A stretch of 23,874 nucleotides of DNA from Candidatus Fraserbacteria bacterium (GTDB lineage: Bacteria > Bipolaricaulota > Bipolaricaulia > RBG-16-55-9). The first letter of the stretch is position 1, and each line of letters opens with the position of its first letter. Made by a program: the position numbers and the translations under genes. Under the pieces are notes generated by a model. The model saw only the letters and a program-made list of their open reading frames with translations, did not search any database and was not told the origin of the DNA. The stretch lies in the NCBI GenBank assembly GCA_037442925.1, contig JBBIPG010000034.1, forward strand, positions 1 through 23,874. The letters run 5' to 3'. Of this stretch, positions 1-23,871 are shown in pieces.

Positions 1-19
1 GCCTCATGGTCAGTTCCAT
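1..19 (-). CDS. 5' end of a gene running off the window (MELTMR...)
   Basis: The minus strand reads AAGGAGG-caacc-ATG GAA CTG ACC ATG AGG, a strong Shine-Dalgarno (SD) at good spacing. Only 6 codons are visible. Confidence 0.6.
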
Positions 20-132
20 GGTTGCCTCCTTGCTCTGAGAGACAACCAAAACCTCCTCTCGGGTTCGAGTACTTTCTTACCTGAGGCAACGATCCCGTTT
101 GGAGTACTTTTTTGATGAGGCAATTCGAGCAC

Positions 133-162
133 TTGACAGCGCAACCATCCACCGAGTATACT
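133..162 (+). promoter_or_regulatory. sigma70-type promoter for the riboswitch/ncRNA transcript
   Basis: TTGACA (133-138), 18 nt, TATACT (157-162). Predicted start is about 168-169. Confidence 0.75.
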
Positions 163-176
163 TTTTTAGACCATCC

Positions 177-334
177 GAACGTCCGACAAAGGCAAACTCC
201 TCGAAAGGGGGGGACGCAAAGCCGTAGGCCTAAAGAGAGTCGGATGAGTCACAAAGTCTAAAGAGTCCAACAGACTCAGAAGACTCCAGCGGCTCAGAAG
301 ACTCCCATGGCGGCTAGGTTGCCGAAGATCGTTC
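177..334 (+). ncRNA. c-di-GMP-I (GEMM) riboswitch aptamer with enlarged P3
   Basis: GGCAAAC-TCCTC-GAAA-GGGGG-GGACGCAAAGCC-GTAGGCCTAAA...ATGGCGGCTAGGTTGCCG matches the class I consensus: GNRA tetraloop, CTAAA receptor, GACGCAAAG junction. G at the G20-equivalent position indicates c-di-GMP rather than c-AMP-GMP. P1 is 177-185/323-334. Confidence 0.9.
237..304 (+). repeat. 9-nt-periodic inverted repeat array (4x GAGTC-like, then 4x GACTC-like)
   Basis: GAGTC at 237, 246, 263 and AAGTC at 254. GACTC at 273, 282, 300 and GGCTC at 291. Confidence 0.85.
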
Positions 335-357
335 TGACATGTTTTCTTGCGATTATA

Positions 358-724
358 GAGCTACCTCCTTGCAGGCAGGGTACGCTTGGCCGAGCGGGGT
401 GCCAGCGTGCACCCAAGCTTCCGATCTCCCAGAGTTTTCTCGTGGGCCCACCTCCTGTTTCAATTCTCGCGAGTTTTTGCTCAGGAATCGAAGAGGTGCT
501 CGGCCAAGCGTTTTCCTCATCTAGCGGTGAGAGGGAGTAGGGGAGAGCCGTAGGCCACGTTCCGTGTCCTTGGGGGTTAAGTTCGGATGGTCCCTCAAGG
601 CCGTGAGCGTGGTCTACGTATTTCACGGGTTCCTTAGGCATGGAGCGAGAAAGTAAAAGGCTGCCAATGAGAGTGTAGCGGGTTCGCTGGGGCCGTTTTG
701 AATCTGCCACCGCGGCTGTAGCTC
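358..724 (+). ncRNA. putative large structured non-coding RNA of unknown family
   Basis: Stems seen by eye: 358-364/718-724, 374-379/703-708, 382-395/498-511 (14 bp perfect), 397-402/409-414, 418-425/487-493, 516-520/527-531, 546-551/712-717, 550-559/608-617, 568-576/592-600, 601-606/623-628, 677-680/685-688. The wobble pairs are G-U on the + strand. There is no ORF with an RBS. Confidence 0.6.
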
Positions 725-810
725 CTTTCCCCCCTGACCCGCGTCCCCTAAGATATTACCACAAATGAGGGCCTTCCGGCAAGGGGACACTTCTAGGGGG
801 ATCGTTTCAT

Positions 811-2013
811 CTACAGCTCCAAAGACTTGGCGATGGTCTCTTTCTGGATCTCGTCGGTCCCTTCGACGATGCGTAAGATTCGAGCGAAGCGAAAGATCCG
901 TTCGATGGGCAGCTCCTTCATTACCCCCATGCCCCCGTGGATCTGCACGGCACGATCGGCCAGGCGGTAGAGCATGTTCGTCGCGTACCACTTGGCCATC
1001 GAACTTTCCGCAATGATTGGCTCTCCTTGATCCATCTTCCAGGAGGCGTTCAAGACCATCTGCTCGGCGGCATAGAGCTCTGCAGCGGATTCAGCGAGCA
1101 TTCCTCGAATATGCTGATACTTGCTAATGGGTTTCCCAAAGGCCGTGCGGAGGTTGGCGTACTCAACCGAGCGCTTCAGAAGATAGTGGGCTAGGCCGAT
1201 GCTCCAGCTGGCAATGTTGAGTCGTCCGATCCCCAGCCAGCTCATGGCGATATAAAAGCCCATGCCCTCCTGACCGATGACGTTCTCGAGGGGGACTTTA
1301 CAGTTTTCAAAGATGAGTTCTGCCTGGGAGCCATCGTCGATGATGCTACGATTGATCTTCCCCATCTGATATCCGGGGGTATCGCGCTCCACGAGGAAGG
1401 CCGTCACGCCCAGATAGCCATGCTCTTTGTACGTCTTAGGATCTGTGATGGCGAAGACCTGGGCGAAGTCGGCATCGGCCGCGTTCGTGATGAAGGTCTT
1501 CATGCCGTTCAGAATATAGAAGTTGCCCTTCTTCTCTGCTCGGGTTTTCAAGTTCTTGATGTCGGAACCGGCTTCGGGCTCTGTGAGCGCAAAGCAGGTT
1601 GTCTTCTCCCCACGGATGAGTGGCTTCAGATACTTTTCACGCTGGAGTTCGTCGAGTTGCAGAAGCATTGGGCTCGGACCTTCCGGGCCGGATAACACGA
1701 CGACATTGAGTCCCAGTCCATGGCGGAAGACTTCCGTAGCGGCATAGAACATGCCGACGCGGTTTATGCCGCCGCCACCGATGTCTGTCGGCATGTGCAT
1801 CGCGTAGTATCCCAACTCAGCGGAGCGGCGGCGCACGTGACTCAAAATTCCTTTGAACTCAGGCACGAGGCTCCCGTCGTCTCGCAGACGGGCGCGCTCG
1901 TCTTCCAAGAATCTCTTATGCTTTTCTTCCAAAGGCCGGACTTCTTTCTCTAAGAACGAGCGGAGTCCGCGACAGATCATCTGGATCTCTTCTGGAACTG
2001 TGAAGTCAACCAT
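811..2013 (-). CDS. acyl-CoA dehydrogenase
   Basis: FALTEPEAGSD, LNGMKTFITNA, RTAFGKPI, VQIHGGMG and IVEGTDEIQK motifs; 400 aa. Confidence 0.95.
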   Translation of the reverse strand: MVDFTVPEEIQMICRGLRSFLEKEVRPLEEKHKRFLEDERARLRDDGSLVPEFKGILSHVRRRSAELGYYAMHMPTDIGGGGINRVGMFYAATEVFRHGLGLNVVVLSGPEGPSPMLLQLDELQREKYLKPLIRGEKTTCFALTEPEAGSDIKNLKTRAEKKGNFYILNGMKTFITNAADADFAQVFAITDPKTYKEHGYLGVTAFLVERDTPGYQMGKINRSIIDDGSQAELIFENCKVPLENVIGQEGMGFYIAMSWLGIGRLNIASWSIGLAHYLLKRSVEYANLRTAFGKPISKYQHIRGMLAESAAELYAAEQMVLNASWKMDQGEPIIAESSMAKWYATNMLYRLADRAVQIHGGMGVMKELPIERIFRFARILRIVEGTDEIQKETIAKSLEL

Positions 2014-2521: not shown

Positions 2522-4093
2522 TTATGGTTCTGTCGTCTGCGGCTTCCGTTTCGTTCGGTACTGTTCTCTTAGCGTGCTCTTTAGGATTTTCCCTGTGCCG
2601 CTCTTGGGCAATTCCTTCACAAATTCAACACCCTTGGGCACTTTGTAGGGCGAAAGATGCTTCTTGCAGAAGGACCGCAAGTCTTGCTCTGTCGCGTGAT
2701 GACCTTCGCGCAGCACGACTACAGCTCGAATGGCTTGAATCCATTTTTCATCTGGCACACCGATGACAGCAGCTTCTAGCACAGCCGGATGTCCGTAGAG
2801 CACAGACTCGACTTCTGTGGAATAGACGTTCTCACCGCCGGTGATGATCATGTCATCTTTTCTGTCGACAATGTAGATATAGCCCTCTTCGTCATACTTG
2901 GCCATGTCCTTTGTGTGGTACCAAGATCCACGCAGGGCTATTTCCGTCTCCTCGGGTCGATTCCAGTAGCCCTTCATCACGTTTGGGCCGTGAACGAGGA
3001 TCTCGCCGATCTGGCCCGGCTTTACGTCCCGATCGTTCTCATCTACAATGCGTACCTCGACTCCCAAGATGGGTTTTCCAGCGGAAGCAAGGATCTCTTC
3101 TTTGCCTGCGAGCCCACGCTGATGATCCTCTGCCGTGAGGATACTGACCAGAGGAGAGGCCTCCGTCATGCCATAGCCTTGCTGAAAATGGCAGCGAAAG
3201 ACCTTCATGGCTCGCTTCAAGACCTCGACCGGCATGGGCGAAGCACCGTACAGTATTTGGCTGAGACTACTGAGGTTCCACTTGTCCACGCTGGGATGAT
3301 TGAGCAGCCAGTTGATCATCGTGGGGATCAAGACGACCGTGGTGGCCTTCTTGGTCTCAATCGTCTGAAGAACGGCTTCGGGGTCAAAGCGGGGGACGAA
3401 GGCATGGGTTCCGCCGTTCCAGGTGACGGTGAAGGTGCCGGCCCCATCAGCCAGATGGAACATGGGAGCGGCATGCAAATAGACGCTATCGCCGTAGAAC
3501 TCAAAGGCGAGCTGGGCGTGGTAGGCGTTCATCATGAGGTTCTTGTGGGTGAGCATGGCTCCTTTGGGCTGACCGGTCGTTCCGCTGGTGTAGAAGAGTC
3601 CCACGAGATCATCCTCTGTGATGGATACATCTGGGTCTTCCGCAGAGGATTTCTCCAGAAGTTCCTCGTAAGCGATCATGGCCGGGGGAGCATCTTTCCC
3701 AGCAAAGAGAAAGTGCCGGACACCCAAGAGCGTGAGTTGCTCCATGTGTGGTTTGAGATGTTCGTAGATCGTGGTATCGAGCGCGAAGGCTTTGGGCTGG
3801 CAATCTGCCAGAGCATAAGCGAATTCTTTGGGTCCCCAACGGATGTTAAGCGGCACGATAACCAGCCCTGCAAACATCGAGCCGTAATAGAGCTCGAGAA
3901 AGCGATGGCAGTTGAGCATGAGGACGGCCACCCGGTCACCCTTCTCTAGACCCAGGCCGAGAAGTCCGTTGGCCAGACGCAGGACGCGCTCATAGAACTG
4001 AGCGTAGGTCCACTCTTGTGGGCCGCACGTGGCAGCAATGCGTTTGGGGCACATGCGCACCGGACGTCGTAGGGTATTGCGAAGGTCGAGCAT
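2522..4093 (-). CDS. long-chain fatty acid--CoA ligase (AMP-binding family)
   Basis: YTSGTTGQPKG, GYGMTEASP, DRKDDMIITGGENV and LPKSGTGKILK motifs. Start moved to ATG 4093, which follows a GAGGT SD. Confidence 0.95.
   Translation of the reverse strand: MLDLRNTLRRPVRMCPKRIAATCGPQEWTYAQFYERVLRLANGLLGLGLEKGDRVAVLMLNCHRFLELYYGSMFAGLVIVPLNIRWGPKEFAYALADCQPKAFALDTTIYEHLKPHMEQLTLLGVRHFLFAGKDAPPAMIAYEELLEKSSAEDPDVSITEDDLVGLFYTSGTTGQPKGAMLTHKNLMMNAYHAQLAFEFYGDSVYLHAAPMFHLADGAGTFTVTWNGGTHAFVPRFDPEAVLQTIETKKATTVVLIPTMINWLLNHPSVDKWNLSSLSQILYGASPMPVEVLKRAMKVFRCHFQQGYGMTEASPLVSILTAEDHQRGLAGKEEILASAGKPILGVEVRIVDENDRDVKPGQIGEILVHGPNVMKGYWNRPEETEIALRGSWYHTKDMAKYDEEGYIYIVDRKDDMIITGGENVYSTEVESVLYGHPAVLEAAVIGVPDEKWIQAIRAVVVLREGHHATEQDLRSFCKKHLSPYKVPKGVEFVKELPKSGTGKILKSTLREQYRTKRKPQTTEP

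Positions 4094-23718: not shown

Positions 23719-23871
<153 letters not shown>

Follow-up and report, generated by a model that had tools for sequence, protein, structure and literature searches.

A predicted riboswitch-headed RNA of Candidatus Fraserbacteria with a conserved rod domain and a candidate pairing between its 5' end and a 3' hairpin loop

We analysed a 23,874-nucleotide stretch of DNA from Candidatus Fraserbacteria bacterium (hereafter the window; contig JBBIPG010000034.1). Judged from sequence, positions 169-624 consist of a c-di-GMP-I aptamer, a conserved multi-copy rod RNA with a predicted anti-Shine-Dalgarno loop and a 3' hairpin, and would form one transcript from 169 to about 624, that is, a predicted non-coding RNA of ~450 nt. 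The aptamer class is already known and parts of the RNA resemble several described systems. Our preferred reading, held tentatively, is a genus-restricted 5'-end clamp on a stand-alone RNA that would be stabilised by c-di-GMP and whose rod would act in trans on ribosome-binding sites. Among the sequences compared were this genome (G000), one other genome of the genus (G001) and sequencing runs in the form of contigs (X1, X2, X3, X5 and X6).

Layout of the predicted RNA and its aptamer

The putative transcript lies behind a sigma-70-type promoter on the forward strand (TTGACA-18-TATACT, 133-162; promoter scan score 11/12). The usual spacing places +1 at 169, the seventh base past the -10 box, and promoters like this one also precede the other aptamer-headed copies tested. 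The first bases, GACCATCCGAAC (169-180), make up the putative 5' docking strand, of which 169/170-176 would be a toehold outside P1 and 177-180 are common to the P1 extension. Rfam assigned positions 182-327 to the c-di-GMP-I aptamers (RF03167/RF01051), the call being c-di-GMP-I-GGC, with RF03167 at 60.8 bits against a cut-off of 59 and 66.2 against 35 in a second scan; nothing else of weight was found in window 1-900 at E up to 10. In the covariance-model alignment of the window, G191 and C322 fall on positions G20 and C92 of the Vc2 numbering, the c-di-GMP type; A20 would mean cGAMP. P1 has its core at 184-185/323-324, continues with 182-183/327-328 and can be extended by 177-181/330-334 (177-334 in all), and an alternative hairpin at 331-361 (331-336/356-361) would take up the 3' strand of this extension. 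P3 carries a variable insertion of ~75 nt, which is shorter in G001, X5 and X6. This insertion (window 231-308) is made of short repeats, and a similar one was seen in a second aptamer of the genome (G000:C26, near 3400-3520). Its bases 239-250 are a further near-complement of the 5' end, a match that relatives do not keep. Also absent from relatives is a repeat, GCCGTAGGCC, found at 221-230 and 547-556 of the window.

The aptamer is followed by a first anti-Shine-Dalgarno motif (363-369) preceding the closing stem of the rod, a perfect 14-bp helix (382-395/498-511) found in the inverted-repeat listing. Within the rod, the conserved core of the RNA family (415-499) comprises a U-rich internal loop and an apical stem (439-445/467-473) whose loop holds CACCUCCU at 449-456. 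The region 358-545 folds at z -2.4, and the window's own rod departs from the family consensus when folded as a single sequence. At window 519, one base is missing in all four covering runs, which is likely an assembly error or a strain variant. The 3' hairpin (549-624), a predicted bidirectional terminator, has a 14-bp outer stem, a 9-bp inner stem (568-576/592-600), a 15-nt loop (577-591) and a short pyrimidine tail; the putative loop-side docking strand, GTTCGGATGGTC, occupies 581-592 and is the reverse complement of 169-180. This hairpin is strong and has pyrimidine tails on both strands; the terminator scan did not call it.

The usual expression platform, a terminator or the ribosome-binding site of a downstream gene, was looked for behind the window's aptamer and not found: the terminator scan gave none there, and no frame of at least 100 codons starts within 600 nt of the aptamer. 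An earlier reading made from the sequence alone (the sequence-only reading) had expected an output other than a terminator or ribosome-binding site, and the lack of both a terminator and a reading frame behind the aptamer agrees with this. A sense frame from the ATG at 339 was rejected: an insertion at 342 breaks it in X5, and it is frame-shifted in G001. Elsewhere in the genome, 10 of 15 other aptamers are followed by a long frame (at least 100 codons) starting within 26 nt of the aptamer end. Altogether, the genome has 17 c-di-GMP-I aptamers versus one GGDEF cyclase protein; many of the 17 have a start codon inside or beside P1. The genome, 94% complete, encodes RNase E/G, RNase Y and Rho; searches for RNase J and Hfq found neither.

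Pairing between the 5' end and the 3' hairpin loop

The sequence-only reading had noticed that 169-180 is an exact reverse complement of 581-592. We found the match to be perfect, with 400 nt between its arms, and to begin at the start site predicted from the promoter. The 9-bp stem enclosing the loop-side segment and the P1 extension that overlaps the 5' segment (177-181/330-334) also pair as described, and our hand estimate gave the same chance of about 1% for such a 12-mer in 600 nt. Shuffles agreed with this rarity: 0 of 100 gave a 12-bp helix when the 19 bases ahead of core P1 were set against the 318 bases that follow the aptamer, and 1 of 200 reached the duplex energy of the match. For 13 other aptamers in this genome, the leader gave a helix of 9 bp at best. 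Because C592 doubles as the closing base of the hairpin stem, the register common to all relatives is one of 11 bp (170-180/581-591), which starts at the predicted 5' terminus and ends flush on the 9-bp stem. Given its conservation at the genus level and its exact register, the pairing of 170-180 with 581-591 is likely functional; that the 5' end and the loop pair at all is, in our judgement, clearly probable.

Conservation of the pairing among relatives

The docking pairing is carried by four lineages of one genus, two of which are known from difference tables alone. In G001, 170-176 (7/7) and 581-591 (11/11) are identical to the window; identity elsewhere is 2/4 for the other loop bases, 12/27 for the linker 335-361 and 45/82 for 619-700. 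G001 keeps 12 pairs, which 0 of 100 shuffles match, and 14 of 200 shuffles do as well as its duplex energy when this is counted from the predicted +1. A179G in G001 leaves a G-U pair. G169U/C592A, with the U at the predicted -1, appears to be a compensatory change; it is not a clean case, since 592 closes the hairpin stem and its stem partner 576 changes too, which would explain the substitution equally well. Thus, a search for compensatory changes, which had been suggested as a check, showed that the segments are conserved in the genus but yielded no unambiguous compensatory pair.

X5 and X6, which represent two further relatives, differ from the window at 164-170, 565-569 and 579 or 580. No change was found in 581-592 of X1, X2, X5 and X6, the difference list being complete there for X5 and X6. 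In 171-180, X5 and X6 show none among the changes listed, with one change per run in 171-233 unplaced; a change at 171-180 would likely have shown among the differences listed. In both runs, the predicted transcript begins with a G, which pairs with U591, and the pairing again starts at the predicted +1. Outside the genus, the complementarity is lost. Two of the 13 aptamer-headed copies (G000 and G001) pass the pairing test, and the other 11 are without it though the aptamer is kept; G006 retains five bases of the docking match. A second type of 5' capture, considered for family f3 on the basis of helices in L074 (10 bp, 2/100 shuffles), L075 (10 bp, 5/100) and L102 (8 bp, 28/100), was rejected: the sites in L102 and in L074/L075 occupy different alignment columns, and control leaders in the same test reach 4/100 and 6/100.

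Convergent promoter at the 3' hairpin

A second sigma-70-type promoter, with an extended TG, lies on the minus strand (TTGCCG-18-TAATAT, 753-782) and would direct an antisense RNA that starts at about 746 and reads across the hairpin; the convergent neighbour, an acyl-CoA dehydrogenase gene (811-2013, minus strand), is outside the RNA. Window 700-770 shares 80% identity with G001, a conservation that we attribute to the promoter facing back at the hairpin. It is found in five of the six copies with this hairpin type (the window, G001, G004, G008 and G002; not G006), and weaker convergent motifs without the TG occur at 3 of 25 other loci. The predicted antisense RNA spans the whole hairpin and its loop bases equal the 5'-end bases of the sense RNA, so that both would compete for 581-591.

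An antisense-encoded protein was considered and rejected: frames of 130-162 codons exist at four of five loci, but they are 34-45% identical only where the RNA is conserved, and they shift between relatives. No short hydrophobic toxin frame was found at the window; the 122 loci gave 11 scattered candidates, and one small family at 3 loci. For pairing of the antisense RNA with the apical loop, the shuffle counts (92, 26, 32, 8 and 220 of 300) were not significant overall. In genus g4 (L100 and L069), the 3' hairpin holds a different conserved insert of ~40 nt that does not match its own 5' end.

Relationship between ligand binding and the pairing

The sequence-only reading took the pairing itself for the switch. 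In the form in which we weighed it, a ligand-bound extended P1 would shorten or block the dock and expose the loop to the convergent antisense RNA or to a protein. Parts of this interpretation stood, namely the competition with the P1 extension, the likely function and the lack of a terminator or frame; the step to a switch did not. Only 4 of the 12 pairs are mutually exclusive with the P1 extension. Docking leaves the ligand-binding core of P1 (182-185 with 323-328) intact, 182-183/327-328 survive, and seven to eight bases (169-176) can serve as a toehold whichever state the RNA is in; P1 stems of other aptamers in the genome look equally short by eye. When the aptamer helices are fixed, releasing 169-180 is computed to cost 2.4 kcal/mol and opening the hairpin loop 0.3 kcal/mol, which is cheap compared with about -21.8 kcal/mol of stacking for the 11-bp docking helix before pseudoknot penalties. 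By a hand sum, the full dock is ~6.6 kcal/mol better than toehold-only docking before strain. Moreover, 11 of the 13 aptamer-headed copies do without the pairing, and G004, G008 and G002 have the antisense promoter but no dock.

Other observations speak for a switch. T356C and G360A in X5 and X6 turn both G-U pairs of the hairpin 331-336/356-361 into Watson-Crick pairs, which strengthens it and favours the view that it is a genuine alternative hairpin. The part of the loop that would be freed (577-584) holds UUAA/UUCG motifs of the U-turn type, of which the one at 577-580 is kept by the X5/X6 changes, and most copies of this hairpin type (five of six) face an antisense promoter. In addition, only 4 nt must span 11 bp in the docking pseudoknot, a sterically tight arrangement that leaves room for the switch model, as strain in the dock could narrow the energy gap. 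We consider the switch unlikely, though the strongest of the rival readings. More likely, the 5'-end pairing would clamp and protect the front end of the RNA and would not itself be the switch, and the computed energies suggest that the docking pseudoknot would probably form whether ligand is bound or not. In ViennaRNA, a nested alternative in which the hairpin is broken had a pair probability of 0.0015 at a cost of 4 kcal/mol, and cost 9.5 kcal/mol with the aptamer folded (the P3 constraint being partly mis-specified in that fold). Since this form is disfavoured, the pairing, if formed, would be a pseudoknot.

The complementarity could also be accidental, the loop being kept for antisense contact and the 5' bases for initiation and P1, without any long-range pairing. 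The lack of a clean compensatory change, the loss of the pairing outside the genus and its absence from the predicted ensemble all fit such an accident, for which the prior is about 1% per 600-nt window. However, 171-176 are invariant in the relatives although they have no other known partner there, every loop change in the relatives falls in the 4 non-docking bases, and the register stops precisely at the stem on one side and at +1 on the other. Coincidence appears somewhat less likely still than a switch.

The rod RNA family

To place the rod, we built one covariance model from 12 homologues and a second from 35. In the first, 9 of 19 pairs show double changes, whereas 0 of 500 shuffles do as well. 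The second model gave 180 matches in all 35 genomes searched from this Bipolaricaulota order, with 2-9 copies each and nine in this genome; in the rest of the phylum, matches were found in 3 of 117 genomes, one of them strong. We examined 122 copies, of which 119 belong to the 180, two come from G036 and one from a metagenome contig. Over 96 distinct rows, 17 of 19 pairs have double changes (474 cells vs 175 in shuffles), in an alignment that was fitted to the model and whose related rows are not independent. In the core, short invariant helices flank a U-rich internal loop. Of 122 copies, 101 have in their apical region a C-rich motif that resembles the 3' end of 16S rRNA and is hence anti-Shine-Dalgarno-like; 81 of 120 have a similar motif no more than 130 nt ahead of the core, both counts coming from loose patterns with no control. 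An aptamer precedes the rod in 13 of 119 copies, in four families; the remaining 106 have none. Past the core by 10-15 nt, 26 of 122 copies carry a canonical tRNA T-arm (vs 2 of 352 control windows), and in these a small GG-loop (D-loop-like) hairpin precedes the core; the window's copy has neither. Together, T-arm and D-loop-like hairpin resemble a cloverleaf with a long arm at the anticodon position. Members with a T-arm include L073, L074, L075, L087, L102, L118, L119, L126, L130, L136, L141, L151 and L185.

The lengths of insertions and deletions between the two halves of the core are not divisible by three, and a crude count found a sense frame within 250 nt of 31 of 117 copies; in G006, a sense gene follows the core by 240 nt. 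At relaxed thresholds, Rfam gave nothing over the rod in the window, nor in 14 and 15 paralogue loci. Our literature search, which covered mostly open-access main text, found no description of the rod RNA family; supplementary tables of RNA-motif surveys could list it. One search of viral contigs gave 0 matches and another gave 1 that looks like chance. Four look-alikes from a pattern scan (L053, L055, L057 and L062) were dropped by eye as chance. For anti-Shine-Dalgarno targets, predicted over 1296 crude start sites for seven of the nine genome copies, none was better than flank-shuffled controls.

Several known RNAs were compared with the rod. The anti-Shine-Dalgarno sibling sRNAs RsaE/RoxS, LhrC and csRNA occur as several paralogues per genome with C-rich loop motifs. 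The same holds for the cuckoo family (PMC4615179), and the rod family is alike in this respect. Where these sRNAs have 2-4 small hairpins, the rod is one long structure whose U-rich internal loop is invariant. The rod family also differs in that some members carry a tRNA T-arm and in having no Rfam match. An identity as cuckoo RNA was rejected, as the alignments show no 2-4 adjacent hairpins each with CCUCCUCCC. Bacterial Y RNA/YrlA is marked by a Ro60 (TROVE) partner gene and a tRNA-like T-arm; a Ro60 (TROVE) gene was found in 0 of the 35 genomes searched, and the rod was not taken as Y RNA. We also rejected tRNA (ARAGORN calls none over the rods in 12 loci) and 6S RNA (RF00013 matches 0 of 1 and 0 of 101 genomes, with a model that also misses 9 of 14 control genomes).

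Some members have distinctive neighbours. L094 (G036) immediately precedes the gene for RNase P RNA, and L078, L083, L088 and L101 lie beside tRNA genes. L139, L140 and L178, a paralogue of genus g8, have a conserved 28-residue Trp/Phe-rich hydrophobic frame ~180-250 nt past the core.

Comparison with known systems and possible mode of action

Few riboswitches head a non-coding RNA, and the output of these few (merRNA, RCd11 and Vc2) is largely unsettled. Bdellovibrio merRNA is reported to be a stand-alone RNA of about 445 nt that holds a c-di-GMP riboswitch and has no conserved reading frame (PMC3627812). The window's aptamer likewise sits in a predicted ~450-nt RNA without a conserved frame, a likeness of layout with predicted ends; unlike merRNA, which is reported from Bdellovibrio only (PMC3627812), it belongs to a multi-copy structured family of which the aptamer heads 13/119 members. 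In Clostridium difficile, the c-di-GMP-I riboswitches cdi1_4/cdi1_5 precede the antitoxin RNAs RCd11/RCd12, with a long form of about 400 nt (PMC7699646). Both cases combine a c-di-GMP-I riboswitch upstream of a small RNA with a convergent partner transcript (predicted here); however, the C. difficile riboswitch is described as terminating at about 140 nt and the partner as encoding a membrane toxin, whereas in the window no terminator follows the aptamer and no conserved toxin frame was found. RNA I of Enterococcus par(pAD1) is reported to sequester its extreme 5' end in an intramolecular helix for stability (PMC7472228). RNA I/RNA II and the window share convergent promoters (motifs here), a common hairpin and a U-turn motif in the terminator loop; unlike par(pAD1), the window has no Fst-like peptide, the 5' end of its RNA would pair into the loop of the predicted terminator itself, and a riboswitch heads the RNA. 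Finally, the Vc2 aptamer of Vibrio cholerae (c-di-GMP-I) is reported to control a non-coding RNA via stability and not termination; Vc2 lies at the 3' end of its own sRNA, and the window's aptamer at the 5' end (bioRxiv 10.1101/617340). The window RNA works like parts of each compared system; of these groups, the aptamer class is the only one to which it belongs.

By analogy with Vc2, on which the ligand-stability step rests, c-di-GMP likely sets the lifetime of the RNA and does not toggle the 5'-end pairing. In the clamp reading that we prefer, a single transcript would run from 169 to about 624. After synthesis of the hairpin, 170-180 would pair with 581-591, and the resulting pseudoknot would stack on the 9-bp stem and place the 5'-terminal base at the junction; with a free 5' end, this could happen without threading. 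The buried end would be hidden from 5'-dependent decay by RNase E/G, as with the upstream helix of par RNA I. Ligand would compact the aptamer domain and shield the RNA both while it is being made and from cleavage by RNase E/G or RNase Y, and the level of the RNA would therefore follow c-di-GMP. The rod would offer its C-rich loop to mRNA ribosome-binding sites in trans, and the clamp would shield the hairpin loop, for which the convergent RNA, complementary to the whole hairpin, would compete.

The RNA might instead be an abundant store of ligand, stable with the help of the clamp, that buffers c-di-GMP in the manner of merRNA and is not ligand-regulated. A near-consensus promoter, the predicted ~450 nt and the lack of a reading frame, as in the Bdellovibrio RNA (PMC3627812), are consistent with this idea, as is the excess of aptamers (17) over cyclases (one) in the genome. 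However, the 106 of 119 family members without an aptamer indicate a separate function for the rod, and we rate a ligand store as quite improbable. Antitermination, in which the free 5' end would capture the emerging 581-592 and break the 549-618 hairpin while ligand favours termination, would explain why the complement sits inside a hairpin and could suit the sense gene of G006, 240 nt past the core; with a cost of 4-9.5 kcal/mol for hairpin breakage, an untouched 14-bp outer stem, no sense gene behind the RNA in the window and no dock in G006, it is very improbable. DNA inversion between the 12-bp repeats, whose perfect match adjoins a promoter, is scarcely credible: an inversion of 169-592, which the sequence-only reading had wished to see excluded, left no strand-change joint among the contigs of X1, X2, X3, X5 and X6 (contigs drop rare variants), G001 has the same orientation, and A179G breaks the DNA repeat but keeps the RNA G-U pair.

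The bolder proposal is that the order has tRNA-derived, trans-acting anti-Shine-Dalgarno RNAs that work without Hfq, some under c-di-GMP control through a 5' aptamer, and that in this genus ligand-gated capture of the 5' terminus by the terminator loop would decide antisense attack, giving a riboswitch platform that is neither a terminator nor a ribosome-binding site. As a whole, this seems doubtful to us, much as the switch does. The clamp reading aside, the rod family is a candidate Hfq-independent system of translation control in an uncultured phylum. One family offers natural comparisons with and without aptamer, 5' clamp, antisense promoter and tRNA elbow, and all parts of the RNA are short enough for testing in vitro.

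Additional features of the window

Window 1-127 is the end of a repeated element, with other copies on contigs C22, C32, C35 and C37 of G000 and at L017, L021, L023 and L036. In every copy seen, the element ends 5 bases short of a TTGACA-like -35 box, which is followed by a -10 box, and it looks like an insertion sequence that would target sigma-70 promoters. On the minus strand, a frame with a strong Shine-Dalgarno sequence begins near 19 and continues past the contig end; no transposase was identified. At the other end of the contig, window 23719-23868 holds two tandem tRNA genes.
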